DNA from: a virus
DNA: 64,000 bases
Direction: 5' to 3' (one strand)
Virus record (IMG/VR): IMGVR_UViG_3300037883_000122
Span: 1 to 64,000 of that record
Shown: piece after piece, positions 4,444 through 52,336 of the stretch
How the letters are laid out: each line of letters starts with the position of its first letter
Numbering within the stretch: the stretch's first letter is position 1
The notes under the pieces: model-generated
The model's database searches: none
What the model was told of the DNA's origin: nothing
The model's input: only the letters and a program-made list of their open reading frames with translations
Made by a program: the position numbers and the translations under genes

Positions 4444-6645
4444 ATGTCCAAATTGTATCAAATCGGCAACGGTGGTCAGGACGGTACGATCAACTCGCTG
4501 GTCGCCAAGGTTCAAGGTCACTTCAACCGCGGCCCCGCCGTCGACAAGACCCTCGCTTCGCGCGTCGTCGCGATGGAATCGTTCAGCGACGGCGATGTCC
4601 GTACGCAAGAACTCGACACCTCGATCAAGGGCCTGAAGGCTGCCCTCGAAGGCATCAGCTCGACGTTCGCATCGGAAATGAACCAGAACGACGGCATCGT
4701 CGCTGGCAAGCACACGGCTGCTCAGAAGCAAGCTGGTCTCGTCGCTGCGATCGTCGCAGGCGACATGAAGGGCTTCCTGTCGGCGCCGGTCAGCCGCAAG
4801 ATGTCGCTGGAAGGCTACACCTTCATCCCGGCAGTGGGCAACGGTGCGATGGACAAGCGTCAGTCGAAGGCTCTCGAAGCTTACGACGAACGCGAAACGA
4901 AGGCTGCGACCGTGTACTCGGTGGCGTACAACCTCCAGGCTGCTCGCCAGGACGAATTCGGTGAAGCGTTCTTCCCGACCGTCGTCGTGACGCCGGACCA
5001 GTACGGCTACACCGTCTCGATCCGCCTCGTGCAAGTGTACGACGAAGTTCGCCGCACCATCGACGGCGCGGTCAGCAAGAACTTCGGCAAGAAGAACATC
5101 ATCCAGGCATTGATCGACCCGACGATCCTGCGCAACGACCTGTCGAAGATCATCCCGGTCTTCCGTCCGGAAGCTGCTGCAAACTTCGTGTCGCCGACCC
5201 TGGTTCCGACGCAAACGATCGACCACGAAGGCATCTCGGTCGCGACCGGCCCGCTGGCGATCAACAAGCAGTTCTCGCTGCTCGGCATCTCGCAAACCGA
5301 CGCGCTGCTCGAAACCGGCATGCTGGATTCGACCGACGCGATCGACCCGGCTATCAAGCTGTCGGCTCTGTACCTCCAGGTCGGCACGGGCGGCTCGGCT
5401 GAAGTGATCAAGTTCAAGTCGGTGGCCAACATGCAATCGGGTACCTTCACGTACTCGGTGCAGAACAACTACCGCCTGATGTCGCTGAACTTCATCAGCA
5501 ACGCGCTGGTGATCAACAAGAACACGACGAAGGCCGACGGTACGGCTTCGACGGCTCTGGCGTCGATCGTCACGGGCAACTACGAAGTCAAGTTGTCGAT
5601 GCAAGTGTTCGGTACGGTCAACCTGGAACTGGCAGACACGCAACTGTCCGCTGGCGCTGTGTCGATCTACGAAGTGCGTGACGAAGACGGCAACCTGGTC
5701 GACACGACCACGGGTCCGGGTGCAACGATCGCGACGGCTCTGGCCAACGCGCAAGTCATCGGTTACGACCTCGACGCACGTCGCACGAACACGAACCGTC
5801 GTGAACGTGGTCAGCTGCTCGACCTGACGTTCTACAACATGGTTTACGGCGTGCCGCTCCTGTCGCCGATCACGATTCCGCGTCCGCTGACCCTGGGTGA
5901 CCAGAACGATGCGTCGGACCTGGCTGCGCTGATCACGGCAACGCACATCCGTACGTCGAACGCTGCAGTTGCGAAGCTGCTCGAGGCAGAAGGCGCGCTG
6001 AAGGAACTCGTCACCAGCAATGGCGGCCTGTACCAAGGCGATCCGGAAATCCTCGGCGTGGCACGTTTCCTCGTGACGCCGTTCTACGAGAACCAGCAGT
6101 ACAGCGCACCGGCTGTGGTGGACTCGATCAAGTCGCACGAACGTGCGGCCGACATCCAGGCTTCCCTGGTCAACCTGCTGCGCGACATGGTTTATCGCAT
6201 GTACCGCGACTCGGGCTTCAAGGCTGCTGCTGACGCGCTGGCTGGTGGCGTCGCTGCTACGCCGACCGTGATCATCGGTACCGATCCGGTCATCGCACGT
6301 TACCTGCAAGTGACGGGCGACTTCCGCACGCTGGGCAATGACTTCAACGTCAAGATCGTCTCGACGCTGAACATCAACATGCGTGGCAAGATCCGCTTCT
6401 CGTTCGGCGAGTTCGGTGAAGGCAAGGAAGGCGTGCCGAACCCGATGCACTTCGGCAACATGGCATGGAAGCCGGAACTGACGTTGATTCTCCCGCTGCA
6501 TCGCAATGGCGCGAACAGCAAGGAAATCACCGTGCAGCCTGCGTTCCTGCACGTGGTGAACCTCCCGATCATGGGCTCGATCGATGTCTCCGGCATCGAA
6601 CAAGTCGTGACCGCGAAGGTCGCAGTCAACATGCACTCGGTCTGA
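4444..6645 (+). CDS. Major capsid protein (phiKZ gp120-like)
   Basis: 733 aa with strong codon bias. Motifs QDEFGEAFFPT, RRTNTNRRERG and IGTDPVIARY as in phiKZ-like capsids. N-terminal A/S-x-E protease sites (AME, ALE, SLE, ALE145). Confidence 0.92.
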   Translation: MSKLYQIGNGGQDGTINSLVAKVQGHFNRGPAVDKTLASRVVAMESFSDGDVRTQELDTSIKGLKAALEGISSTFASEMNQNDGIVAGKHTAAQKQAGLVAAIVAGDMKGFLSAPVSRKMSLEGYTFIPAVGNGAMDKRQSKALEAYDERETKAATVYSVAYNLQAARQDEFGEAFFPTVVVTPDQYGYTVSIRLVQVYDEVRRTIDGAVSKNFGKKNIIQALIDPTILRNDLSKIIPVFRPEAAANFVSPTLVPTQTIDHEGISVATGPLAINKQFSLLGISQTDALLETGMLDSTDAIDPAIKLSALYLQVGTGGSAEVIKFKSVANMQSGTFTYSVQNNYRLMSLNFISNALVINKNTTKADGTASTALASIVTGNYEVKLSMQVFGTVNLELADTQLSAGAVSIYEVRDEDGNLVDTTTGPGATIATALANAQVIGYDLDARRTNTNRRERGQLLDLTFYNMVYGVPLLSPITIPRPLTLGDQNDASDLAALITATHIRTSNAAVAKLLEAEGALKELVTSNGGLYQGDPEILGVARFLVTPFYENQQYSAPAVVDSIKSHERAADIQASLVNLLRDMVYRMYRDSGFKAAADALAGGVAATPTVIIGTDPVIARYLQVTGDFRTLGNDFNVKIVSTLNINMRGKIRFSFGEFGEGKEGVPNPMHFGNMAWKPELTLILPLHRNGANSKEITVQPAFLHVVNLPIMGSIDVSGIEQVVTAKVAVNMHSV

Positions 6646-7020: not shown

Positions 7021-7036
7021 ACATATATTACTAACT
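7021..7036 (+). promoter_or_regulatory. phiKZ-type early (virion RNAP) promoter, TATATTAC
   Basis: ACATATATTACTAACT. The core matches the phiKZ early consensus TATATTAC; a near-identical copy is at 52321; it precedes the nvRNAP-subunit operon. Confidence 0.75.
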
Positions 7037-8330: not shown

Positions 8331-10001
8331 ATGGCAGACCGTGAACTTTCTCGGCTAATTGATCTCCACACCCCCAAGCTAAACCCGGATCTCGCAAATG
8401 GACTTGCCCAAAAGCACATGCAGGATGCCGAAGGGTGGGTGAATAGCGTGTTCCGAGCGGTGGCGCAAGGGTTTCCTGATGGATTCACTTACGTAAAGGG
8501 GGAAAGATGTACACCGCAGGAAGAGTTCGACGAGGCAACTCGTAAGAAGAACAACAAGCGAATGTTCGACGTTGCCCGTTCGGACATTTACATGATGAAG
8601 TACCTCTTTCGCCATATCGATCCGAAGACCGGTAAGGTGGAAGAAATCAAACGGTATATGTATCTGCCGTTTGTGTCGGACGCAGGGGTGATCTATCTCG
8701 GCGGGTCGCGCTTTGTGATCTCGCCGATTCTGGCCGACCGAGTGATCTCGAAGGGGGAGTCCTCCATCTTCGTGAAGCTCATCCGGGCAAAGCTGACCTT
8801 CCAGCGCGAGCAGCAGCATTTCCTCGCGAACGATGTTACGGGGCGTGACTTCCGTGAGACCGTTCACGTGGCCTGGTCCTTGGTGTACAACAAGAACCAG
8901 AAGATGCAAAAGCTCAAGCCAGTGATCAAGGCGAACACGACGTTGGTCCATTACTTGCTGTGTAAGTATGGATTTGCGGAAATGTTCCAGCGCTTTGCGG
9001 GCACTGTACCGATCGTGGGAGATGCGAGCACCATCAGCGAGGCAGAGTATCCGCCAAGCGACTGGGTGATCGTGAAGACCAATACCCACACGCGCCCTGC
9101 TCGGACGTACACCCTGAAGTCCTATACGCCCACGACGATACGTCTGGCTATCCGCCGGAGTGAGTACACGCAGCAGGTCAAAAACCTGGTGTGTGGCTTC
9201 TACTATCTCGTCGATCACTTCCCCAATCGGGTGCTGCCGAAGTATATCGGTACCCTTGCGGAACCCAAGCCGCGTGAGCGTGCATTGTGGATGATCTTGA
9301 TGGGCCATCTGCTTTTCTCGAGCAACATCAACGAGGGCAAGCTCGAGGACGATATCGCTGAACACATCCGCAGTCTGGATGAGTACATCGATGAGGTGAT
9401 GAAGATCAAGTTCAAAGACATCGGCATGCCGGTGGAGGACATCTACCAGTTGTTCGGTATTGTTCTCGAGAACTTCCAAGACTGGATTCTGGCGGCTCAG
9501 GATCAGGTCTCGAGCATGTACGACAAGGAGCTGTCGGTCCTCTACTACGTGCTGGATGAAATCACCAAGCAGATCAACAAGTTCTACTTCAAGCTGAAGG
9601 CGGCTTCGAAGAAGGAACTGAACGCGAAAGAAATCACGACCATGATGAACCAGACACTCCGGACCGGTCTGGTGTATTCGATCACCAAGAAGCACGGTGA
9701 GGTTTCGACTATTTCGTGCCCCGGCGACAATAAGGCGTTCAAGACGACCGCCCAGTTGGTGCCACAAACGAGTTCCAGTCGTCAAACGGGGCGGAAGGAC
9801 AACGCGGCAATCAGTGACCCGACCAAGCAGATCCACATCTCGGTGTGTGAAGTCGGTGGCTACGCGAATCTGCCGAAAAGCGATCCTTCCGGACACGCAC
9901 GTCTGAATCCGCATTTGCATACCGATGCGAAAGGCGTGGTGTTACGCGATCCGGGACTCATTGAGTTGCTGGACCAAACGCAGCAGAAGTTGAAGCAGTA
10001 A
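8331..10001 (+). CDS. Non-virion RNA polymerase beta-like subunit (phiKZ gp123-like)
   Basis: YLPF..G.I.LGGSRF.ISPILAD and HISVCEVG...LPKSDPSG.ARLNP motifs; three genes downstream position relative to capsid conserved with phiKZ order. Confidence 0.82.
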   Translation: MADRELSRLIDLHTPKLNPDLANGLAQKHMQDAEGWVNSVFRAVAQGFPDGFTYVKGERCTPQEEFDEATRKKNNKRMFDVARSDIYMMKYLFRHIDPKTGKVEEIKRYMYLPFVSDAGVIYLGGSRFVISPILADRVISKGESSIFVKLIRAKLTFQREQQHFLANDVTGRDFRETVHVAWSLVYNKNQKMQKLKPVIKANTTLVHYLLCKYGFAEMFQRFAGTVPIVGDASTISEAEYPPSDWVIVKTNTHTRPARTYTLKSYTPTTIRLAIRRSEYTQQVKNLVCGFYYLVDHFPNRVLPKYIGTLAEPKPRERALWMILMGHLLFSSNINEGKLEDDIAEHIRSLDEYIDEVMKIKFKDIGMPVEDIYQLFGIVLENFQDWILAAQDQVSSMYDKELSVLYYVLDEITKQINKFYFKLKAASKKELNAKEITTMMNQTLRTGLVYSITKKHGEVSTISCPGDNKAFKTTAQLVPQTSSSRQTGRKDNAAISDPTKQIHISVCEVGGYANLPKSDPSGHARLNPHLHTDAKGVVLRDPGLIELLDQTQQKLKQ

Positions 10002-10095: not shown

Positions 10096-12171
10096 ATGGT
10101 GAATTTACAAGGTGGTCAGCTGCCTGCAGACCCGTACAACGCGGAACGGCAGCCTCTGCAGGGTATCTCGATCGGTAATCCCCCATTCGTCCCGCAGTTC
10201 AATGCGCCGGGATTCATGGGTGATCTGATCCCTGTGATTGCTGGTGCAATTGCGACGGACATTCAGGAGAACGCGCTGCGCACGCCCGCGCGCATGTTCA
10301 CGTATAACCTGGTGTCGCGCAACGCCTTCCAGAACGAAATCTTTGCAGGTCTCGTAATCGGAGTGACGGACTGGGTCTGTCTGGCGCTGGCAGATCGTAA
10401 GTTCCAGAACCCAGAACAAGCAGCGCAGGCACTCGTGCCGAAGATGGTCGAGATGTTCGTGGCCATCCAGATTCTGCAGTACCAGGAGTTGCAGAAGGAC
10501 TGCCCGCCGCAAGCGCAGCAGACCGTCGAGAACCTGGGTCGGATCTGGACCGAGTTGCAAAACGAAATCCCGCAGTTCAAGGCATCCAATGTCTACGCGC
10601 AGATGATGCAAGGCGGCTTCGGCGGCGGGAATGTCGGTGGTGGTTGGGTGCAGCAACAGCAAGGCAACCGTTGGGGTGGCGGTGGTCAGGCTGGTGGTCA
10701 GTGGGGTGGAGGCGGTGGTCAGAACCAGGGTGGACGTTGGGGCTCGGGTAACCAGGGCGGTGGCTGGCAGGGCAACCGTCAAGCACCACGTCAATTCACG
10801 GGGATGAACGCCGGTAACACGGGTCTGTTCACGGGCGGTGGCGGCGGCACAGCCGAGGGTAGCAGCTCGGATCGCTTCAACACGGATCGTTTCGCGAGCC
10901 GTGGCGATGCTGCGCAACAACAGCACAAGCCGGACCCCAATTCGTCCTGGGTGCCGAAGAACGCTCCGTCGGAGAAGGTCGACAAGATGACCGTGGCGGC
11001 AACAGCGCCAGTGCAGCAGGTGGAAACGAAACCGGTGCAGAACGAGCCGGAACACATCGACACCACCAAACTGAAGTGGCGTCCGTCGTTGTCCCAGCCG
11101 TATGCGCTGGCGTACAACCCGCGTACGCAACTGATGTATCTGCAACAGCAAGCCGACGGCACTGTTCTCCAGCTCGTGAAAGAAAGGACGGAAATTCCCA
11201 TGGACCGTGAAAAGCATCGCCTACCCACAACCTTCGGTAGCGCACCGAAGAACGTCGATACCAGCAAGTCTGCCGAATCGCTCCAACGCGTGAAGGCTGG
11301 CGTGAAGGAACTGACGGCAGTGGTCGGCGACGGTGAAGCGGGCGAAGAACCGCCGAAGCGTCCGTTGGTGCAGGTGATCGAAGATGCATGGGTGCTGGAA
11401 ACGTCGGAAACCCTGGCGTGGCTGCAAGGTACCCTGAAGTGCATGGCAACGGTGAAGGACTCGCAAGTGCCGGACGTGTTCCGTGTGCGTGCGCAAGTGG
11501 CCGAGCCGTTCGTCGCAGCAGTGGACGAACGTGGTGCGATCCAGTCCTTTGCAGAAGCGAAGTCGTACTCGGAACTGCGCGAGATGATGTTGTCGGTGGA
11601 AGGTGCGATGTCGGCGGCGCTGTATCAGGCCGTCAACCTGCGCATGACCGATGTCATCAATCGCGTGCTGGGCCAGAGCCTGTCGATTCCGGATATCCGC
11701 ATCACGTCGTTCGTCGACGACGCGGAAGATGTGGGTCCGGCGATCGAGCAGTACTACGGTGATGCGTTCTCGAATGCTTTCCTGGGCAACCAGGTGAAGA
11801 ACATTCGCGCAGCGTTTGCCGAGTTCGTCACGGAAGAAGAAGAGGTGCTCCTCACGGAGAACCTGCTGATGGATCGCGAGTATTCGAAGGACAAGGGGCC
11901 GAAGATCACGTATCTCGTCGCCAACTTCACGCTCACGTATCTGAACGTGTCTGCTATCGAGCTCGAGTTGGAACTCGATCCGGCGGACAAGATTGCCTCG
12001 ATGATCACGAGCGATCTGCCGGAGTTGTACGAGCTGGCCCGCAGCATCTTCGAAGCGACGGAAGGCGAGAATTTCCATCGCCATCTGATTCGCACGGCTG
12101 ACGACCATCTGCTGGAAGTCACGCAAGGCCTCATTGGCCAGGACGTGTATCTGATCCGTAAGGTGAAGTAA
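10096..12171 (+). CDS. Conserved hypothetical protein with G/Q/W-rich low-complexity linker
   Basis: 691 aa, AAGGA RBS, host-like codon usage, internal GGW/GGQ repeats. Confidence 0.8.
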   Translation: MVNLQGGQLPADPYNAERQPLQGISIGNPPFVPQFNAPGFMGDLIPVIAGAIATDIQENALRTPARMFTYNLVSRNAFQNEIFAGLVIGVTDWVCLALADRKFQNPEQAAQALVPKMVEMFVAIQILQYQELQKDCPPQAQQTVENLGRIWTELQNEIPQFKASNVYAQMMQGGFGGGNVGGGWVQQQQGNRWGGGGQAGGQWGGGGGQNQGGRWGSGNQGGGWQGNRQAPRQFTGMNAGNTGLFTGGGGGTAEGSSSDRFNTDRFASRGDAAQQQHKPDPNSSWVPKNAPSEKVDKMTVAATAPVQQVETKPVQNEPEHIDTTKLKWRPSLSQPYALAYNPRTQLMYLQQQADGTVLQLVKERTEIPMDREKHRLPTTFGSAPKNVDTSKSAESLQRVKAGVKELTAVVGDGEAGEEPPKRPLVQVIEDAWVLETSETLAWLQGTLKCMATVKDSQVPDVFRVRAQVAEPFVAAVDERGAIQSFAEAKSYSELREMMLSVEGAMSAALYQAVNLRMTDVINRVLGQSLSIPDIRITSFVDDAEDVGPAIEQYYGDAFSNAFLGNQVKNIRAAFAEFVTEEEEVLLTENLLMDREYSKDKGPKITYLVANFTLTYLNVSAIELELELDPADKIASMITSDLPELYELARSIFEATEGENFHRHLIRTADDHLLEVTQGLIGQDVYLIRKVK

Positions 12172-12185
12172 AACGTCCAACGACG

Positions 12186-12225
12186 GGTCTGGGGGGTAAC
12201 TCCCAGACCTTCTTTTTTTATGCCC
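12186..12225 (+). terminator. Intrinsic terminator
   Basis: GGTCTGGG..CCCAGACC stem followed by TTCTTTTTTTATGCCC. Confidence 0.8.
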
Positions 12226-12246: not shown

Positions 12247-12690
12247 ATGAATCTCAAGGTCAATGAAGATCTGGAAGCACTGAATGTCCACGATAAGCGG
12301 ATGAACGTGCTGGTGACCGGCGGTAAAGAAGATGATCGCGCTGTTATCCAGGACGTCATCTTCAACGCATTGGAAGGAGCGGGCTTTCGTAGCCTCTATT
12401 ACGAGGCGAACGCTTATAGCGCTGAACCGCCGATGGAAGTCAAGTCGATTCTGGATGCCATGAAGGAACAGAATCCTGCTTTCTTCGACATGCCGATTAC
12501 GATCGAGTCGGCGAATCGCATCTACGATACGGTAGGTGGGACTATTACCGAGGCGTGCGATTTCCCCGAGGAAGTCCCGAACAACGAAGCGTGGCAGCGC
12601 GTAACGGATCGTTTGAATCGCCTCCACGGCAACACCGACCGCGGTCCGCTCGAAATGGAAGTCAACGGCAATATCGTGATTCGCTTCTGA
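12247..12690 (+). CDS. Small paralog family member 1 (degenerate P-loop-like module)
   Basis: GAGGAGG RBS; L..AGF and SILDAMKEQNPAFFDMPITI motifs shared with downstream paralogs. Confidence 0.8.
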   Translation: MNLKVNEDLEALNVHDKRMNVLVTGGKEDDRAVIQDVIFNALEGAGFRSLYYEANAYSAEPPMEVKSILDAMKEQNPAFFDMPITIESANRIYDTVGGTITEACDFPEEVPNNEAWQRVTDRLNRLHGNTDRGPLEMEVNGNIVIRF

Positions 12691-12713
12691 AAGACCAAGG
12701 AAACAAGGAAACC

Positions 12714-13862
12714 ATGAAAGTCATCCCGCAGTACAGCTTGGAACACGCCGAATACTTCGTCGACGGGAAGTTCAATCATGCCGAAAACAAAACGGTCACG
12801 ACAGGTCGCTCCGTTCTCAGTGCCCCGCTCGTCATCGCGAAATCGATTCCGTTTCTCGAACTGGCCAAGACAGATCTACTGCTCGAAGAAAATGTGATTG
12901 ATTCGAAATGGGCGATCGATCCTGAGTACGTGCGGCTGGAATCGGTGGCCATCGAATTCCCTGGCTTGCCCAAGCTCATCAGTTCGCATATCGGTCTGAA
13001 TGTCGAAGAGGCGCTCTTTCGTCCGACCGCGCAACACACACCACACCACCTGCTGATCGTCAAGAAGAAGATCCCGGTGATCGTCGGTTTGTCGGAACTG
13101 GCCGCCTGCAGCAGTTACGACGATCGTGCAGCCCATGCACCGCTGCTGCAATATGCAGCCGAGCAGAACCTGCATCTGGTTTTCTCGATGGAGATCTCGG
13201 GTTCGGTGAACATAGCGACCGGCACGGTTCGTCTTTTGTCGAACTCGTTCGATCTCGTGTCGATTCTGGACCACGCAGGCAGACTGCTTGAAGCCACGAA
13301 CAGTGCAGAAATCAATAAACTGCGCGAGTACGTGAAAGACGCACATCCGCGCGGCTACTCGTTGGATGCGAACTGGCTACAGACGAACGAAGCCCAGACC
13401 TATCAGTTCGAGATGGGTGACCCGAATCCAATCGGTCGCGGCATGGCACTCCTGGTGCGCGGTTATCTGTTGTCGGCTCCTTCGGTCGGCTACGCAGCAG
13501 AGATCACCGAACCCTCGGTGAGCAAGGTCGGTGCCACCAAACTCTACCTACAGCCTGATCGTACCTCGGAACCGGAATGGTACGTGACGATCGAGGAAGG
13601 CTTTGAGTTGTCGCCGGGTGAGTGCAACATCGCGTTCCATGCTCACGGCACGGAATGGGCCAACGTACTGGACGATAACAACGAAACGATCAAGCGCTGG
13701 AAAGAGCTCGGTCGTTGGGAAAGTATCGCACCCGGCGCGTACGGTTTGTGGGTCGAAGCAATCGCGCAATTCCTGCTGGATGGCGAGGAGTATTATTTGA
13801 CGAACACGTTGCCGGATACGATTCCCGAAGGTGTGGGGTATCGCGCAACTGACAACGGTTAA
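12714..13862 (+). CDS. Major-capsid internal-domain paralog fused to an uncharacterised domain
   Basis: ATG 12714 with AAGGA RBS. Residues 1-219 align to capsid residues ~235-445; the C-terminal half resembles ORF 13896..14297. Confidence 0.8.
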   Translation: MKVIPQYSLEHAEYFVDGKFNHAENKTVTTGRSVLSAPLVIAKSIPFLELAKTDLLLEENVIDSKWAIDPEYVRLESVAIEFPGLPKLISSHIGLNVEEALFRPTAQHTPHHLLIVKKKIPVIVGLSELAACSSYDDRAAHAPLLQYAAEQNLHLVFSMEISGSVNIATGTVRLLSNSFDLVSILDHAGRLLEATNSAEINKLREYVKDAHPRGYSLDANWLQTNEAQTYQFEMGDPNPIGRGMALLVRGYLLSAPSVGYAAEITEPSVSKVGATKLYLQPDRTSEPEWYVTIEEGFELSPGECNIAFHAHGTEWANVLDDNNETIKRWKELGRWESIAPGAYGLWVEAIAQFLLDGEEYYLTNTLPDTIPEGVGYRATDNG

Positions 13863-13895
13863 GTCAGAGACCATCCTGAAAGGAGTAAGTGACGC

Positions 13896-14297
13896 ATGAG
13901 CGCCCGTAAGAACCCTGTCCTTCCCGTGACTGTTTCGATGGCTGATAACGTGCCGAATCCGTTCGGTTACGCGATCATGGGAATCCTGCAGGCTAAGCTG
14001 TTAGCAGTGCGTTCGGTATTTCCGAACATCCAGCTGAAAACTATGTACGTGTGTGAGACGCCGGATGAAATGGCCCACACCCAGTTCTGCTTCCTGGATC
14101 TGAATCGCATGGGAGACAAAATCCCCTATGTGACGATGAGTGAGTACCAGGACCCAGACGGTGAAGTCCGCTACGATCTCTGGTTACACCAGGACGGTCG
14201 AGTGGAAGAACTCTTCGTCGAGGCGATTATCGAAGAAGTAGTTGTGGCTGCCAATACCGTCTGGACGCACCTCAAACCGCAGGCGCTCTCGAAGTAA
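13896..14297 (+). CDS. Hypothetical protein, paralogous to the C-terminal domain of 12714..13862
   Basis: AAGGAG RBS; MADNVPNPFGYAIMGILQAKLL compared with MGDPNPIGRGMALLVRGYLL. Confidence 0.7.
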   Translation: MSARKNPVLPVTVSMADNVPNPFGYAIMGILQAKLLAVRSVFPNIQLKTMYVCETPDEMAHTQFCFLDLNRMGDKIPYVTMSEYQDPDGEVRYDLWLHQDGRVEELFVEAIIEEVVVAANTVWTHLKPQALSK

Positions 14298-14368
14298 AAC
14301 TTACGACCCCGAACCATCAGATGGAGAGCGCTCCGGCGTTCTCCGTCTTATGAACCCAGCGAGGAAAG

Positions 14369-14818
14369 ATGAGTCCCGAAGACATCAACATCACCGTCGA
14401 AGCCCAAGGCGCAGAAACACGCCAACTGGTTGCGAGTTTGATCTCCAACCGTCTGACGGAGGCGGGCTTCACGAACGTCGACGTGGGTCTCGCGACCCGC
14501 GAAGACAAAACGAGCACGCCCATCGCCGCGGAAGCGATGCCGTCGTTGCTCGACGCAATCAAAGAAGCCAACCCGGCTGTGTTCGCACGTCCGGTGAGCA
14601 TTCTGGCCATGCCCTTTAGCGACATCATCGACGGCGAGCGGATCGTCCACGTGGCGTTGATGAAGGATCGGTCGGATATGGAAGAAGGTCCGGAGCTGGA
14701 GCCGGGCCAAGGTCGTTTGGAAGACGGCACGATCATCGATCTGGCGACCTATGTGTCACCGGACGGAACGCGACTGGCAGAAGCTCTGATCGAAGTCGGC
14801 GCGGGTCAACACGTCTAA
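14369..14818 (+). CDS. Small paralog family member 2
   Basis: GAGG RBS; LTEAGFTNV...SLLDAIKEANPAVFARPVSI. Confidence 0.8.
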   Translation: MSPEDINITVEAQGAETRQLVASLISNRLTEAGFTNVDVGLATREDKTSTPIAAEAMPSLLDAIKEANPAVFARPVSILAMPFSDIIDGERIVHVALMKDRSDMEEGPELEPGQGRLEDGTIIDLATYVSPDGTRLAEALIEVGAGQHV

Positions 14819-14827
14819 GGAGTACGG

Positions 14828-15439
14828 ATGGCACAGGTATCCGAACGCTTCGCTGCCCAAAAGGAACGCATCCTGGAACGTCTTCAGGAAGGCCCCTTAA
14901 CGGCATTAGAAGCCTTGGAGAATTTGGGTGTCATGCGAATGGCTGCCCGAGTTCACGATCTGCGAGCAGACGGTCATCCGATCGTTTGTGAGACTGTCGT
15001 TGTGCCTAACCGATTCTCGGAAGAAAGTCGGGTGGCACGCTACAGCTTGCAGCCCGAACAACATAATCAACCTACGAAGCAGGGAAGTAACATGAGCGAA
15101 GCACTTGACAACAATCCGACGCAAGCCGCAGGCATCATCATTGCCTCGGACAACATCAACCAGCGTCAAGCTATCTCGGTTGCCGTCAGCAAAGGTCTGA
15201 AGGACGCCGGTTTCACCAACGTCACGGTGGTGGTCGACAAGAGCGACGACCCCAGCCGGATCGACGTCACACCCGAAAATGCGGAATCGCTGCTCGGCTC
15301 GATTAAGGCCCTCAATCCCGGCCTCTTCGACGCGCCGATCAACATCCTCGCCGCAACGGGCGGTGGCGCGGGCGCAGAGCTCGTGCAGGACATCATGGCC
15401 GACGCCCAGGAAGACGGCTCGGCAGTGACCACGTTCTAA
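14828..15439 (+). CDS. Winged HTH (HTH_39-like) domain fused in frame to paralog family member 3 (internal start 15092)
   Basis: QKERILERLQEGPLTALEALENLGVMRMAARVHDLRADGHPI...VARYSL, then LKDAGFTNV...SLLGSIKALNPGLFDAPINI. Confidence 0.75.
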   Translation: MAQVSERFAAQKERILERLQEGPLTALEALENLGVMRMAARVHDLRADGHPIVCETVVVPNRFSEESRVARYSLQPEQHNQPTKQGSNMSEALDNNPTQAAGIIIASDNINQRQAISVAVSKGLKDAGFTNVTVVVDKSDDPSRIDVTPENAESLLGSIKALNPGLFDAPINILAATGGGAGAELVQDIMADAQEDGSAVTTF

Positions 15440-15514
15440 GCAGTAATCGTCACCGGCTTGCCCTGCTTCGGCAGGGCAGCTATGCCTCTTTACAACGGAA
15501 ACAAGGAAAAGATC

Positions 15515-15859
15515 ATGTCTCTGGAAGAGCACGAAGAAGCCGCAGCCAGTATTGTCATCAGTGCACGCAGCAGCGACCTTGCCCAGGCTTTGGGTAAGGT
15601 TGTTGGTCATGCGCTGACGGAAGTGGGCTTCAGCAGTGTCACTGTGACCCACAGTGACGAGGAGGGCGAAGAAGCGGTCGATCAAACCGATCTGGAGCAA
15701 GGCAAGTCTTTGCTGGAAGCCATCGCGGATGCGAACCCGGATACGTTCCGTGGTCCGATTGCGATCCACAGCTTCGGCTTGAGCGATGAGACGGATATGC
15801 TCCCGCCGGAAGAATCAGCACACCTCGCCGAGATCATTGCGGAGAACGACGAGGATTAA
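15515..15859 (+). CDS. Small paralog family member 4
   Basis: AAGGA RBS before ATG 15515; LTEVGFSSV...SLLEAIADANPDTFRGPIAI. Confidence 0.8.
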   Translation: MSLEEHEEAAASIVISARSSDLAQALGKVVGHALTEVGFSSVTVTHSDEEGEEAVDQTDLEQGKSLLEAIADANPDTFRGPIAIHSFGLSDETDMLPPEESAHLAEIIAENDED

Positions 15860-15874
15860 CCCGAGGAGAGTAAG

Positions 15875-16363
15875 ATGGAGACGCCAGTCAACATCTTGGT
15901 GGAATCACCCGATCCGCTCAAGGCGAATCTGGTTGGCAAGGCCATCGCACAGAGCCTGAGGGACAGCTATGGCTTTAACACGGTCATGCATGCCCATGTG
16001 TTGGTCGACACACCGGAGAGCCGTTCCTGGACGGTGTCGACTGCTGAGGAGCAGGAGGAGAGTATTCTGCAGGCCATGGTGAATCTCAATCCAAGCATCA
16101 TGGACACGCCTGTTACTGTCCTGAGCCGCGGCAACGACGACACGTCTGAGCCTGACATCTCCAAGATCGACCAGCTGCAAGGGCATCGTGGGATTCTGCT
16201 TCAAGGCATCGGTGACGAAGCAGTAAGCTTTGATGAGCTGCGGGAAAAGGCGTGGCAGGCGGCTCAGCCCACGCTTCGGCCGATGGTCGAGAAGTTCGCC
16301 CAGGAAATGATTGACATGTTCGATAGCTCGGGCTTGTCGGCCACCGGGGTCAAGAAGTTCTAA
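15875..16363 (+). CDS. Small paralog family member 5
   Basis: GAGGAG RBS; LRDSYGFNTV...SILQAMVNLNPSIMDTPVTV. Confidence 0.78.
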   Translation: METPVNILVESPDPLKANLVGKAIAQSLRDSYGFNTVMHAHVLVDTPESRSWTVSTAEEQEESILQAMVNLNPSIMDTPVTVLSRGNDDTSEPDISKIDQLQGHRGILLQGIGDEAVSFDELREKAWQAAQPTLRPMVEKFAQEMIDMFDSSGLSATGVKKF

Positions 16364-16408
16364 TGCAGTAGCGGGTGGAGCAATCCACCCGTCTTAAGGA
16401 GAGAAAAG

Positions 16409-18370
16409 ATGACGAATCGCTTCAAAGCAGGCGTGCGCGTGACCATCGACGGTCACTGCCATACGGGCAAAACAATCCTGATGCAGGCTTTCGCGGCCTT
16501 TCTGGAACAATGTGGCTTTCCGGCGGAACAGATCGCTCAATTGTGCGACACGCATGAAGGCGCGCGTATGAAAGGCCAGGATGCTATCGATTACCTGAAG
16601 AAGGCGATTGCCGACGGTCTCTGGAAGGACAACCAGCTGGTCTTCCTCGAGCGCATCGTACCGCGTGCCTTCCGAGCCGATCCGGCCAAGCCGATGATTC
16701 TCGAGTGGGATGCCATGCCGGATCTGTCGCAACACGCACTGCCGCACAATCCGGCGTTTGCGCTGCCACATTCGCAGGTGGAGTTCGAGATGACGAATCG
16801 GCCTTCGAAAGCAGACGCGGTCCGTAACAGCCTGCTGGTGATGCTGAAGTTCGCGGGTGTGATGGCCGCCATCAAGAACTCGCTGCCGCAGGGTGTGACT
16901 GTTCCCACGGATGTCGAGGAATGGATCGCGAAGGCCGGGGTCTTCGCAGAACACACTGATCCGGCACGCTTGGATGCTCCGGACGTGATTGCTGAAACGA
17001 ATCGCGACTACTTCAACGTGTGGGCTGCGGGTGGCGACTCAGTCGCAGGACGTGCAGCTCAAAAACGCCTCATGTTCGCCGGAATGGAAGTTCCTGAGAT
17101 CAAGGGTGTGCGTTTTAAGGATTCGTCCAAGCTACTCCAGCCCAAGCGTTTCTGGCAAGCAGGTTCTCCCGGTGCACTGTTGCTCAACGAAGCAGACCCT
17201 GCTGCAGAACTGACAGCCAGTCTGTGTCGTCGTGGTTATCGCGACTTCTTCGAGGAGCACGCGATCGGTAACTTCGACGTCGTCGATCGTGAACGGGCAG
17301 GGTTCTATTACGATCGTGCCCGTGAGGAGCAGGAGCCGAACAATCCGCACCGGGCGATGATGGAAGTGAGTGTCTATCGTAAAGACAGAGTACCCCTGAC
17401 GAAGGAGGCAGTCGAAACCGCTCGTCAGATGCTCTTCCAATACGATCCGCTCATCATCCTGACGGTCAAGCTGCAGAACTCCAGTCTTTCTGGTGCTCAT
17501 GTCTCGGCCAGCAAGCCGTTGTTCAAGAAGCAACCGCGTGGGATGACCTCCGCCATCTTGCATTTCGATGATGCGCCGTTCCAACCGCGCCTGGAAACCT
17601 TGGCGGACATCACCAAGAACCACTTCGCAGTGCGCGCTACGGACGCTCGTCCTTTCACGCCTGAAGGTGGTTGGCCTGCAGACTTTGATGTTGCACCGTA
17701 TCGCCAGCAGATTCATCCGATCACGGGTGAAACGCTGAATCAAATGGCGGATCGCGCTCAACCGTTCATCAAGACGAAGAACCTGGGCGAACATGTCGCA
17801 CTGGACTACTCGGATCTTCCGGCGGATCTGATGTTTGATCCGAAGTGCGGTGTGCGCTGGAAGACGACGGCTGAAATGGCAGAAACGCAGGCTGAAGTGG
17901 ATCGAATCTTCGACGCTGTGCAGGATGGAACCGCACAAATCGTTCGTGATGGTACCGGTGAAGTCATGATGGTGTTTTTGCCGACACCAGCTGATGAAGT
18001 TCGGGTTCTGAATCCGGAACCGAAGCCCGCGTACTTCAGCGGTATTACGGATGATTCTGCGCAGGCATCGGCGGACGTGAAAGACCTGTTCGCTGAAGCG
18101 CCGCCCATCAGCAAAGGCCTTCAGTTGACTCCGGAGCAGTCGCAGCAGTTCGAAGAGCGTCTAGCCAGACCAGCTCCGCCTACCGAAGCAATGAAGAACG
18201 CGCTGGACAAGCTTCGTTTCGGTGCGCCGGTAGTTAACGCAGAGCCGACGGCGTTCAGTGTTCTCGAGGGTGACAAGTCTTCTGTCCAACCAGCACCTAC
18301 CAGCAACCTGACCAAGATCCACGACGGCGGTACGAACGGCAATCGCTTCTTGCCGCCTTCTGACGAGTAA
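16409..18370 (+). CDS. Mosaic protein: N-terminal P-loop module plus antitoxin-like segments
   Basis: AAGGAG RBS; Walker A GHCHTGKT; later segments resemble Phd/YefM and the DUF1778 C-terminal motif. Confidence 0.75.
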   Translation: MTNRFKAGVRVTIDGHCHTGKTILMQAFAAFLEQCGFPAEQIAQLCDTHEGARMKGQDAIDYLKKAIADGLWKDNQLVFLERIVPRAFRADPAKPMILEWDAMPDLSQHALPHNPAFALPHSQVEFEMTNRPSKADAVRNSLLVMLKFAGVMAAIKNSLPQGVTVPTDVEEWIAKAGVFAEHTDPARLDAPDVIAETNRDYFNVWAAGGDSVAGRAAQKRLMFAGMEVPEIKGVRFKDSSKLLQPKRFWQAGSPGALLLNEADPAAELTASLCRRGYRDFFEEHAIGNFDVVDRERAGFYYDRAREEQEPNNPHRAMMEVSVYRKDRVPLTKEAVETARQMLFQYDPLIILTVKLQNSSLSGAHVSASKPLFKKQPRGMTSAILHFDDAPFQPRLETLADITKNHFAVRATDARPFTPEGGWPADFDVAPYRQQIHPITGETLNQMADRAQPFIKTKNLGEHVALDYSDLPADLMFDPKCGVRWKTTAEMAETQAEVDRIFDAVQDGTAQIVRDGTGEVMMVFLPTPADEVRVLNPEPKPAYFSGITDDSAQASADVKDLFAEAPPISKGLQLTPEQSQQFEERLARPAPPTEAMKNALDKLRFGAPVVNAEPTAFSVLEGDKSSVQPAPTSNLTKIHDGGTNGNRFLPPSDE

Positions 18371-18396: not shown

Positions 18397-18451
18397 GACG
18401 GCATAGAGCGAGGACCCTAGGGTCCTCGCCTTATGACCGTCTTTTTTTTTT
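18397..18451. terminator. Bidirectional hairpin between convergent genes
   Basis: GACGGCATAG-A-GCGAGGACCC-TA-GGGTCCTCGC-CTTATGACCGTC followed by a T run. Confidence 0.8.
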
Positions 18452-18458
18452 GGTCTAT

Positions 18459-21311
18459 TTAGACCGGTGAAGGTGCTGCACCCATCGCTTCCGGATCTTC
18501 GTCTTCCGGGTTCAACGGCGATTCGCTACCCGAGCCTGTACCAGCACCCGTGTCAGTCCCTCCGGCTTCATCACCGAAGTCACCGAATCCACCACCTCCG
18601 AAGTCTCCCATCCCAAAGTCGTCTGTGCCGCCACCAGAGGCCGCACCAGCGCCTCCCATGTCCATCCCGCCACCCATACCACCTGCAGCGCCACCATTCG
18701 TCTGGTCGGTCTCCTTACGCTTCTGCTCGTTCAGATTCGCCGCATCCTTGATCGGCTTGATGCCGTTCATGAAGTGGTCGAGGACCTTCGTGACGTTACC
18801 GATGTGATCCTGGAACGAATCCCAGAGGTTCAGCAACGGACGGCCGTCATCATCCAGCGTCGTGAGCTCAGCGAGTTCCGGCATGACGCCATTCTCACCC
18901 AGCCACTTACGGATAAAGTGAGCCTTAGCCACTTCCTTGATGGTGCTGATGTAGTTGCTGACGTCGCCACCCACATCGGCGGTGAACCAGTTCGACGAGA
19001 TGTACGAGTCCAGTGCAGCATCGACCGTCTTGGTGTACGTGTCGAGGGCTGCCACTTGGTTCTCCAGCGTGACCGAGTTCGGCTTAGGCAAGGTGACTTC
19101 CATGCCCATCACGAAGTCGTACAGCAACTGCTGGATCACCAACTGCTTCGGCTGGCTGCCGAGGTTGGTCTTGTACGTCGGGTCGTCCTTGTGCGCTTCG
19201 TCACGTGCCTTCAGGCGTTCGATCACCTTGTCCGCATTGGCTTCGAGAATAGCACGCAGATCTCGGATGAGCTCTTCGTCATTCATCATCACCTTGCGGA
19301 TGTGGTCAGCCAGTTGCGGCTCGATCACTTCCTGAATGTTCATCACACGCTTGGAGAGCAGGATGTTGTTGGTGAGCACCGAGGTCGCAAACTCCGCCTC
19401 GAACGCTGCATCCACGGACTGAGGCGTGAGACCCAGACCCATGATCGAGCGCTTACGCAGGTCGTCATCCAGCTCATTGTCGACCTTCGCGTAGTTGGTG
19501 TTCTTCTCACCGAACTCCACCGTCATGTCAGGCAGACCAGGATGGCCTTCCGGCACGAACTCGAAGCCTGCACGCTGCACCCAATCGACGATGTCCATCG
19601 GACTATTCGTACCAACCGGGAACGCCTGTTGACGCGAGCGCAGGATTTCGTGCACCACACGCTCAAAGGTCTTCTGCGGGTCAGGATCGTGCTCGTCCAT
19701 CTTGATCTTGACTTCGGTCCGACCCATCGAGTTCTTGACTGCCGCCATCACGTTGGCAAACAAGAGCATCGAGCGCAGCGAGTTGATGATCTTCAGGTCG
19801 TCCAGCATCGACTTACCCATGCCGTCGCCGTTATAGCGCAGCGCGAAGTACGTCATGAACTCGATCGGCATGAAGAGCAGCTGCGTGTGTTGCTTAGCGA
19901 GTGCCCGTGCAAACATGATGCGGTACACTTCTTCACGCTTAGCCAACGCCACGCCGTTGCCGTAGACACCATTGCGCAGACGAGCCAACAGATCTTGCTC
20001 GATCATCTCACCGTAGACGCGTGCCGAGTAATCCAAGTGCGCGTTGTTGGTGTTATCGAACCCCTGCATGTTCGCCTTGACCTTCTGCAACATCGCAGAC
20101 GGGAACGAACCGCCGGAATTCATCCGAGCATTCAGTTGCTGGTAGTAGTCAACGTCCGCAATGCGCTGGATCGGGTGACCGTCTTCATCGATCAGGATGA
20201 AGAAGCCCACGTGCTGTTCGATGTTACCCGGCACGAACACCGGGATCACGGCTTCCGACGGCAAGTGCATGATCAGCGGGCTGCCTACAGCACGGCGATT
20301 CAACTGCTCTTGCGTCTTGAGCGTCGTGATCGGCTTGTACTGATAGTTGCGATCCCGATAAATCAGGTTCGACAACTCGCGGTCATTGATCTTCTCCTTG
20401 CGCAGGCTGCCGCCAATCTCATGCACCATGGTCGTACCGTGACCATCGGCCCCGTAGGCTTCCATAGCGCGCATGCCGCGCGAACCCATCAAATCCATGA
20501 TCCGTTGTTCACGAATCTTCTGGTTGACCTGCGGGATCTTGAGCAGCGAGTAGTTATCCGTCACCGTCGTGAAGGTTTCCTGACCCTGGCCTTCGAACGC
20601 CAGCTGCAGTCCCATCTGGGTGTCGTATGCCGTATCGAAGCGATAATCCTGCATCGATTCAAACGAGATCGACGAGCCCTTACGCTCTTCGCGCGGCTTG
20701 TTCTTGATGACCGGACCGAGCAGACCGAGCGGCTTGATCTTGCCCTCGCGATCGAAATGCTCCGTGAGTGACTCCATCGTCACCTTGCGCGGACCATTGA
20801 TCACGTCGTCGATTGCATTCTCCGGAATCACTGCAACCGGATAGCTCCCAGTCTCGAACAGAACGTCACGCAGCAGGCGAGGCAAGACCTGCTTTATTTT
20901 ATAGTTCTGTTCAAAATGGACGCGAACACGATTGGTCATTGCCGTGTTCACTTCCGGTGTGACCAAGTTCTCCGGGGCTTTATAAACCAGCTCCACAGTC
21001 ATCATGTCTTTGGGCGAAAGCACCGAGGACACGAGAATCTGTGCAGCCAGTTCCAACTCCGGAAGCGTCTGCATCACGGTCTGAGCATCAGAGATGTTCT
21101 GAACCGTATTGTCCGAAACGTTCTTCAACGCCTGGATCGACGGATTGTCCGTCGTCATGTTCCCGGTGCTGTCGTAGCGGGGAGGCGTTTTGCCGTGCAC
21201 AAGCTTGCTAACAGTGGCGGCCATGCCAGGGTCCGATCGGACCAGCGACATGGCTGAGTAGCGTTTACCACTGCCAGCCAGCGCAATGGCTTCCTTCAAC
21301 GCTTTGGACAT
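18459..21311 (-). CDS. Portal protein (phiKZ gp129-like)
   Basis: 950 aa; LPELELAAQILVSSVLSPKD, HLPSEAVIPV.PG and G.GKSML motifs; N-terminal x-x-E protease sites; acidic Gly-rich tail. Confidence 0.8.
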   Translation of the reverse strand: MSKALKEAIALAGSGKRYSAMSLVRSDPGMAATVSKLVHGKTPPRYDSTGNMTTDNPSIQALKNVSDNTVQNISDAQTVMQTLPELELAAQILVSSVLSPKDMMTVELVYKAPENLVTPEVNTAMTNRVRVHFEQNYKIKQVLPRLLRDVLFETGSYPVAVIPENAIDDVINGPRKVTMESLTEHFDREGKIKPLGLLGPVIKNKPREERKGSSISFESMQDYRFDTAYDTQMGLQLAFEGQGQETFTTVTDNYSLLKIPQVNQKIREQRIMDLMGSRGMRAMEAYGADGHGTTMVHEIGGSLRKEKINDRELSNLIYRDRNYQYKPITTLKTQEQLNRRAVGSPLIMHLPSEAVIPVFVPGNIEQHVGFFILIDEDGHPIQRIADVDYYQQLNARMNSGGSFPSAMLQKVKANMQGFDNTNNAHLDYSARVYGEMIEQDLLARLRNGVYGNGVALAKREEVYRIMFARALAKQHTQLLFMPIEFMTYFALRYNGDGMGKSMLDDLKIINSLRSMLLFANVMAAVKNSMGRTEVKIKMDEHDPDPQKTFERVVHEILRSRQQAFPVGTNSPMDIVDWVQRAGFEFVPEGHPGLPDMTVEFGEKNTNYAKVDNELDDDLRKRSIMGLGLTPQSVDAAFEAEFATSVLTNNILLSKRVMNIQEVIEPQLADHIRKVMMNDEELIRDLRAILEANADKVIERLKARDEAHKDDPTYKTNLGSQPKQLVIQQLLYDFVMGMEVTLPKPNSVTLENQVAALDTYTKTVDAALDSYISSNWFTADVGGDVSNYISTIKEVAKAHFIRKWLGENGVMPELAELTTLDDDGRPLLNLWDSFQDHIGNVTKVLDHFMNGIKPIKDAANLNEQKRKETDQTNGGAAGGMGGGMDMGGAGAASGGGTDDFGMGDFGGGGFGDFGDEAGGTDTGAGTGSGSESPLNPEDEDPEAMGAAPSPV

Positions 21312-52320: not shown

Positions 52321-52336
52321 ACATATATTACCAACT
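52321..52336 (+). promoter_or_regulatory. phiKZ-type early promoter, TATATTAC
   Basis: ACATATATTACCAACT, 15/16 identical to the copy at 7021. Confidence 0.72.

Follow-up and report, generated by a model that had tools for sequence, protein, structure and literature searches.

Tandem, fast-evolving acidic paralogs are known among packaged head proteins, as in the IP genes of T4 and the PF12699 family of phiKZ. In the major capsid protein (MCP) of phiKZ, gp120, residues 248-472 form an insertion (I) domain (PMC11297242), which in both phiKZ and Goslar pairs with the I domain of the adjacent capsomer (PMC11297242, PMC13742148). In phiKZ, gp129 is the portal protein and gp128 the wedge protein (PMC13250141), and TATG constitutes the core of the phiKZ late promoters (PMC4666361). 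The DNA analysed here comprises the first 64,000 nucleotides (the window) of IMG/VR virus record IMGVR_UViG_3300037883_000122, that is, the leading 64 kb of a 98.8-kb viral contig with an estimated completeness of 31%; Burkholderia phage FLC9 (321.8 kb) was the sole isolate found to be related to it at the DNA level. Positions 12247-18370 of the window are occupied by eight plus-strand open reading frames (ORFs), g1 to g8, all of which are preceded by sequences resembling ribosome-binding sites. We find that this block consists of lineage-specific accessory genes of FLC9-like, phiKZ-type jumbo phages, that it occupies a slot of variable content, flanked by the gp123/gp124-like genes and the portal gene, and that it is a recombination mosaic, swapping alleles and modules far more than the backbone.

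The genes surrounding the block follow a phiKZ-like order, with a DnaB-like helicase, the MCP, gp123-like and gp124-like genes on one side and the portal and wedge genes on the other. A sequence-only reading of this DNA had proposed eight co-oriented genes between two terminators, and the ORF calls, a terminator scan and the conservation of the downstream stem all bear this out. The same reading had placed the genes as an insertion between the operon for the non-virion RNA polymerase (nvRNAP) and the portal. Relative to RP12 and phiKZ the block is indeed an insertion, but its immediate upstream neighbour encodes a gp124-like protein rather than an established nvRNAP subunit. A portal scan of viral contigs yielded eight loci, and FLC9 was compared as well. 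The block is present in FLC9 and in seven of the eight loci (portals 83-92% identical), and its order, g1-(g2)-g3-g4-g5-g6-g7-(extra 167-aa gene)-g8, is the same in nine genomes including the window, so that the synteny comparison upholds the view of one inherited block as opposed to scattered morons. At the corresponding slot in RP12, in phiKZ and in L024, a complete 219-kb relative with a portal of 50% identity, there is no block, as anticipated for genes that had been called accessory to the lineage. Neither flanking direct repeats nor an integrase, a tRNA or an Rfam match was detected at the block, and its G+C content and skew are indistinguishable from those of its surroundings.

The slot holds different genes in other phages: gp125-127 in phiKZ, one small ORF in RP12, and an ORF with a NUMOD4 motif in L024. 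This turnover is what would be seen if the slot were a permissive insertion site and the eight genes were unrelated passengers, functionally incoherent and co-inherited among close relatives. Internal hairpins, which divide the block into g1-g3, g4-g5, g6-g7 and g8, are compatible with the same explanation, as is the independent gain or loss of g2, which is missing from L017, and of the extra 167-aa gene, which lies between g7 and g8 in L017-L023 and is missing from the window and FLC9. We nevertheless regard a collection of passengers as unlikely, since six of the eight genes, including the head of g8, share one domain, a sign that they have a common origin and probably a partner in common, and since five paralogs have been kept in nine of nine genomes despite heavy recombination. 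The NUMOD4-motif ORF of L024 lies on the minus strand at 13318-13965, between the gp124-like gene and the portal, and is possibly a gene of the homing-endonuclease type.

Evolutionary rates were compared between the window and FLC9. Protein identity is 85-97% in the flanks and 33-89% in the block; nucleotide identity is 78-93% and 31-72%, respectively, dropping exactly at both terminators, with g3 and the start of g4 (~90%) alone staying at the level of the backbone. The ratio of nonsynonymous to synonymous substitution rates (dN/dS, by the NG86 method) is 0.04-0.14 in the flanks and 0.13-0.36 in the block, values that indicate maintained genes under purifying selection, more relaxed than in the flanks. 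Because dS is saturated in the most divergent genes, we relied on four-fold sites at identical residues, which differ by 0.28-0.33 in the flanks, g3 and g4, by 0.47 in g5, and by 0.53-0.62 in g1, g2, g6, g7 and g8. Several genes of the block thus carry alleles whose divergence is much older than that of the backbones. In the paralog tree, g6 of the window joins L017 and not FLC9 (support 96/89), in conflict with the backbone, and the g8 orthologs carry their modules in differing order. This behaviour, in which the block evolves faster than its flanks, is mosaic, gains and loses genes and shuffles modules, fits a host-interaction locus. Together with the strong acidity of the products and their variable fusions, which suit proteins that meet host factors, it leads us to favour, tentatively and at somewhat less than even odds, a host-directed role in infection, namely in takeover or counter-defence, with the products acting as non-catalytic binding proteins.

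The shared domain is acidic, about 80 aa in length, and common to g1, g4, the C-terminal half of g5, g6 and g7, as judged from pairwise BLASTP (E down to 4e-12) and profile comparisons (E 1e-19 to 1e-26); a profile search of the contig returned no copy beyond those five. In a maximum-likelihood tree the copies of each paralog group into a separate clade (support 97-100), and all genomes have kept the full set. These paralog-specific orthologous clades place the amplification before the origin of this phage group, and the sequence relationships show that the block arose when the acidic domain was amplified five-fold in tandem long ago and further domains were captured. The paralogs had been portrayed as relics, a portrayal at odds with the age of these orthologous lineages, all of which are under purifying selection. 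The g1 product is 56% identical to FLC9 gp88 and belongs to an orthologous clade with support of 97/99. In g5 the domain follows a helix-turn-helix (HTH), for which the sequence-only assignment to HTH_39 (PF14090) proved correct (52.8 bits against a cut-off of 21.3, E 3.6e-14), with an additional match to phrog_4973. This HTH is absent from FLC9 gp84 and from the L017-L023 orthologs, and present in the metagenomic protein P0013.

The N-terminus of g8 aligns to the acidic-domain family with an hhalign probability of 92.6% (E 4.6e-7). It carries a Walker A sequence, GHCHTGKT, at 16451-16474, together with LVFLER, and among 12 g8 orthologs of 362-858 aa both GxxxxGKT and FxER are invariant, as are residues G15, G20, K21 and T22. 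The Walker A pattern GxxxxGK[ST] is lacking in g1, g4, g5, g6 and g7, in which the loop position reads GGKEDDRA, AQGAETRQ, SDNINQRQ, ARSSDLAQ and SPDPLKAN, respectively. The g8 head therefore resembles P-loop NTPases in having an invariant GxxxxGKT followed some 55 residues later by hhhhER, and the paralogs align to it with a degenerate loop. It differs from these enzymes in that the domain is just ~80 aa long and its confidently predicted model gives no match to a P-loop fold (best Z 3.4). No P-loop family of Pfam reaches threshold on the paralogs or on the g8 head. AlphaFold2 (AF2) models, which were built from modest alignments, were compared with the PDB. For the g8 N-domain, the predicted local distance difference test (pLDDT) score is 90-98 over residues 10-85, DSSP assigns no strands, and the best matches have a Foldseek E value of 4.1 and a VIA Z score of 3.4 (root-mean-square deviation 5.1, 48 aligned). 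For g4 (pLDDT 72.7), no fold match emerged either (best Foldseek E 0.13, VIA Z 3.5), and ESM Atlas searches with g4 and g3 gave sub-threshold leads only (LytR_C 0.76; unnamed viral clusters 0.82). Thus, of the proposed "five P-loop-like relics", the five paralogs and their hhalign tie to a Walker-A-bearing g8 head stand, but no match to a P-loop fold or Pfam family was found, leaving motifs as the basis for any link to NTPases. A metagenomic protein of 452 aa, P0017, contains two tandem domains of the g8 N-terminal type, the first with a degenerate loop (GQMDGSDKT) and the second with an intact one (GGCYTGKT).

The g8 protein is 33% identical to FLC9 gp81, and its remainder has a conserved C-terminal NLTK..D.G.NG..PP..E motif. 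Antitoxin-like segments had been reported in the block; the C-terminus of g8 matches TacA1/DUF1778 (PF08681) with 14.3 bits, below the cut-off of 21 (E 0.04), no stretch passes by itself, and the TacA-like segment has no PDB sequence match and is not among the conserved parts of g8. Neither GNAT nor any other toxin family was found in the block or the scanned flanking genes. A scan of viral contigs with g8 as single-protein query returned no match.

The capsid-domain copy that had been proposed is found in g2. It matches PhiKZ_MCP (PF25620) at 61.8 bits (cut-off 27, E 4.7e-17) over profile positions 146-367 of 635, its residues 2-219 align by BLASTP with residues 235-445 of the phage's own MCP (25% identity, E 2e-11), and its orthologs carry precomputed PF25620 assignments. 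Residues 2-226 thereby correspond to the I domain of phiKZ gp120 (PF25620; PDB 8y6v). In contrast to gp120, g2 lacks the N-arm and the P and A domains and is not an HK97-fold shell protein, as the PF25620 and BLASTP matches both stop at the limits just given; it is, moreover, fused to a C-terminal domain found in g2 orthologs only, and it is dispensable in one relative. We conclude that g2 is a captured copy of the capsid surface I domain joined to a clade-specific domain. The adjacent g3 is the best-conserved protein of the block (69-89% identity among relatives, dN/dS 0.13) and has no match in Pfam, PHROGs or NCBIfam, nor an informative one in the ESM Atlas. A PNP.G domain duplicated between g2 and g3 could not be sustained: g3 and the g2 C-terminus align with an hhalign probability of 7.9%, and more distant g2 orthologs do not conserve the motif. 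The broader idea of a borrowed or duplicated make-up therefore holds for much of the block, which arose by duplication or capture, and fails for the antitoxin motif and the PNP.G duplication. No match was obtained when viral contigs were scanned with g2 as single-protein query.

A real I-domain copy, and Walker-A-less paralogs beside a real intact Walker A, invite a strict decoy model in which g2 serves as a capsid decoy, dead P-loops poison NTPase-based defences and an orphan antitoxin motif neutralises a host toxin. The evolutionary pattern fits an arms race, and known protein mimics of DNA are comparably acidic to this domain family. We find the model very improbable, however, given that the antitoxin-like match is below threshold and not conserved in g8, the PNP.G duplication is unsupported, the "dead NTPase" comes down to a single motif position with no P-loop fold recovered, and no similarity to host proteins or PADLOC families was found; a capsid sensor would, furthermore, be expected to be triggered, not blunted, by a free copy of the domain that it senses. 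A related and equally doubtful proposal is that the Walker-A-less paralogs assemble with the g8 head into a hetero-oligomeric "pseudo-NTPase", which with the free I domain would intercept immune sensors of capsids or NTPases, the whole constituting a decoy locus diversified by recombination.

To determine the distribution of the acidic domain, a profile was made from its six copies in the window and run against 1.84 billion representative proteins. This returned 153 representatives at E<=1e-3, mostly 85-170 aa and covering the whole domain. The family is uniformly acidic (median pI 4.05, net charge -15), with acidic tails ending many members. It has no Pfam assignments; 11 of 85 members match PHROG 38013 (best E 1.3e-19), g7 does so weakly, and this PHROG itself has neither a function nor a Pfam counterpart. 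In distinction to PHROG 38013, FLC9-like phages alone have the tandem array of five copies and, on g8, the version with Walker A. Among ten members that were looked up, several lie on contigs of 200-326 kb, where a size was recorded, and the family, which is undescribed, appears to be confined to very large phage genomes. RP12 has one copy, adjoining DHFR, and FLC1-1B has two, one of them near ligase and RNR genes; phiKZ gives a weak partial match only (E 0.003), and copies are absent from RSL2, 201phi2-1, PhiPA3, SPN3US and EL. Scans of viral contigs with the single protein P0007 and of genome contigs with P0009 yielded no match, and large repetitive profile matches (e.g. P0011) were rejected as spurious, being caused by an "NP.L" repeat. 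Complete FLC9-like genomes possess exactly five strong copies, all within the block, and one weak match elsewhere. The weak extra matches fall at 208151-208270 of the FLC9 record and, in two other genomes, at 195207-195581 (G003) and 78102-78440 (G001), and such a match may represent a further diverged copy.

The location of the block amid head genes, between the MCP and the portal, raises a different explanation, that of a virion-associated accessory module made of late proteins, either decorating the capsid or packaged inside it. Here g2 would dock through I-domain/I-domain contacts, of the kind by which capsid I domains pair between capsomers, and the paralogs and g8 would be internal or ejected, like the internal proteins of T4 or the inner-body paralogs of phiKZ. 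Tandem small, acidic, fast-diverging paralogs near head genes are, as noted above, typical of packaged head proteins, and the hairpin upstream of the block is followed by a motif that contains TATG, the phiKZ late-promoter core (PMC4666361). The paralogs differ from the T4 loci and the PF12699 arrays in showing no sequence match to them and no recognisable capsid-targeting leader. No PF12699 or other virion-protein family is matched, g2 is dispensable in L017, and the single-copy relatives of the domain adjoin DHFR, ligase and RNR genes and not head genes. The hairpin-associated motif, TTTATGCC, can also be read differently. The window contains nine GC-rich hairpins with TTTATGCC immediately after them, where 0.68 would be expected, and two of the nine copies stand at convergent gene ends with no gene downstream. 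A late promoter was rejected as the sole reading of this element for that reason, and the two convergent copies lead us to read it as what looks like a phage-specific terminator signature rather than a promoter.

A second motif, TATATTAC, the early-promoter motif of phiKZ, has just two sites in the window, at 7024-7031 and 52324-52331 (0.11 expected). The first is located just 5′ of the operon with the gp123-like nvRNAP gene, so that an early-type motif precedes the operon directly upstream of the block, again at variance with a module of late virion proteins. On balance we judge a virion-associated module to be somewhat unlikely.

If the products do act on the host side, the five Walker-A-less domains and the g8 head would have one common fold, and would probably associate mutually or compete for one partner; that the domain recurs on six of eight genes, among them the only one whose Walker A is intact, suggests either that these proteins share a partner or that they form a mixed assembly. 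The variable tails, and the HTH of g5, would supply the specificity of each protein, and the free I domain would find its partner in whatever recognises the same domain on the capsid, either another capsid I domain or a host factor. A parallel would be anti-defence islands of the acr-aca type, which are likewise accessory, mosaic and variable in content, with small acidic proteins and an HTH; the block differs from them in that its HTH forms part of a paralog and is restricted to this phage and one metagenomic relative, and in lacking homology to known anti-defence proteins. Several observations weigh against a host-directed role. No homology to known anti-defence, defence or takeover proteins was found in Pfam, PHROGs, PADLOC or NCBIfam, with PADLOC families at E<=0.01 numbering zero for all eight proteins; Pfam and PHROGs returned only the MCP I domain, the g5 HTH and PHROGs of unknown function, and NCBIfam only a sub-threshold match to the g5 HTH. 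Neither AF2 model has a fold match, and the early-type TATATTAC motif was not found inside the block. The head-gene surroundings of the block and its copy of a capsid domain would suit a role in the virion just as well, the RP12 and FLC1-1B relatives lie among genes of DNA and nucleotide metabolism, which suggests a function in the replication phase and not in the evasion of defences, and tail fibres and internal virion proteins are also fast-evolving and mosaic. Finally, with portals 83-98% identical, synteny is expected from descent and does not by itself show functional coherence.

Among the hundreds of unannotated genes of jumbo phages, the block offers a compact test case. A five-fold expansion with all copies kept is unusual, and the copying of a capsid surface domain into a separate gene is rare. 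If the products serve in counter-defence or takeover, they would add to what is known of the arsenal of nucleus-forming phages, which are under development for the biocontrol of rice and wilt pathogens; should the products be virion proteins, they would represent a new type of capsid accessory.

Table. Coordinates of the block genes, their boundaries and neighbouring features (window positions unless a locus is named)
Feature	Position	Strand	Description
g1	12247-12690	+	147 aa; paralog 1, domain ~residues 16-104; pI 4.5
g2	12714-13862	+	382 aa; residues 2-226 free-standing copy of the MCP I domain; C-terminal ~155 aa a clade-specific domain
g3	13896-14297	+	133 aa; no family match
g4	14369-14818	+	149 aa; paralog 2; pI 4.3; clade support 100/99
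g5	14828-15439	+	203 aa; HTH_39 winged helix, residues 11-75; paralog 3 domain, ~99-192
g6	15515-15859	+	114 aa; ATG at 15515; paralog 4; pI 4.05, net charge -23
g7	15875-16363	+	162 aa; paralog 5; clade support 99/98; weak phrog_38013 match
g8	16409-18370	+	653 aa; N-terminal ~90 aa the sixth domain version; remainder modular, highly variable
Upstream boundary	12185-12224	+	GC hairpin (12185-12210), T-run and TTTATGCC (12217-12224), after the gp124-like gene
Internal hairpin, then CTTATGAAC	14323-14355	+	between g3 and g4; read off the sequence; TTATGAAC at 14348
Internal hairpin, then TATGCC	15456-15486	+	between g5 and g6; read off the sequence
Downstream boundary	18397-18451	+	long stem-loop and T10; inverted repeat I6
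Hairpin and TTTATGCC sites	1984(-), 6766, 6925, 6991, 7449, 12217, 34479(-), 45467, 50169		whole window
MCP	4444-6645		PF25620, E 3.6e-193
gp123-like nvRNAP subunit	8331-10001		30% identity to phiKZ gp123, E 2e-79
gp124-like protein	10096-12171		weak likeness; directly upstream neighbour of the block
gp129-like portal	18459-21311	-	E 9e-113; followed by the gp128-like baseplate wedge gene
Extra 167-aa gene	L017:14068-14571, L019:14478-14981, L020:15052-15555	-	no Pfam match

The boundaries of the block are marked by the stronger of its hairpins. At the downstream boundary, the stem GACGGCATAG...CTTATGACCGTC spans 18397-18440 and T10 follows immediately. The stem is kept in six relatives, with compensatory changes at three pairs and an inner part that varies in sequence while retaining its pairing; this element is an intrinsic terminator common to the block and the convergent portal gene. 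The upstream hairpin and T-run, detected by the terminator scan, are kept in FLC9 and L017. The hairpins between g3 and g4 and between g5 and g6 are weaker than those at the boundaries, and both precede (T)TATG(C/A)C; the gap between g7 and g8 contains a hairpin without this motif.

In the gp124-like protein upstream, the tblastn match (the one segment retained for each locus) covers only residues ~230-691, at 65-88%, in all FLC9-like loci and leaves out the N-terminal ~230 residues (window positions 10096-10800). The unaligned N-terminus means that the variable zone may begin upstream of the block. At the other end of this gene, 17 nt across its stop codon (12165-12181) are 82% alike to 17 nt across the stop codon of g3 (14291-14307), both stretches (GAAGTAAAAC...) preceding a hairpin and a TTATG motif; the likeness may reflect a duplicated terminator module, or chance.

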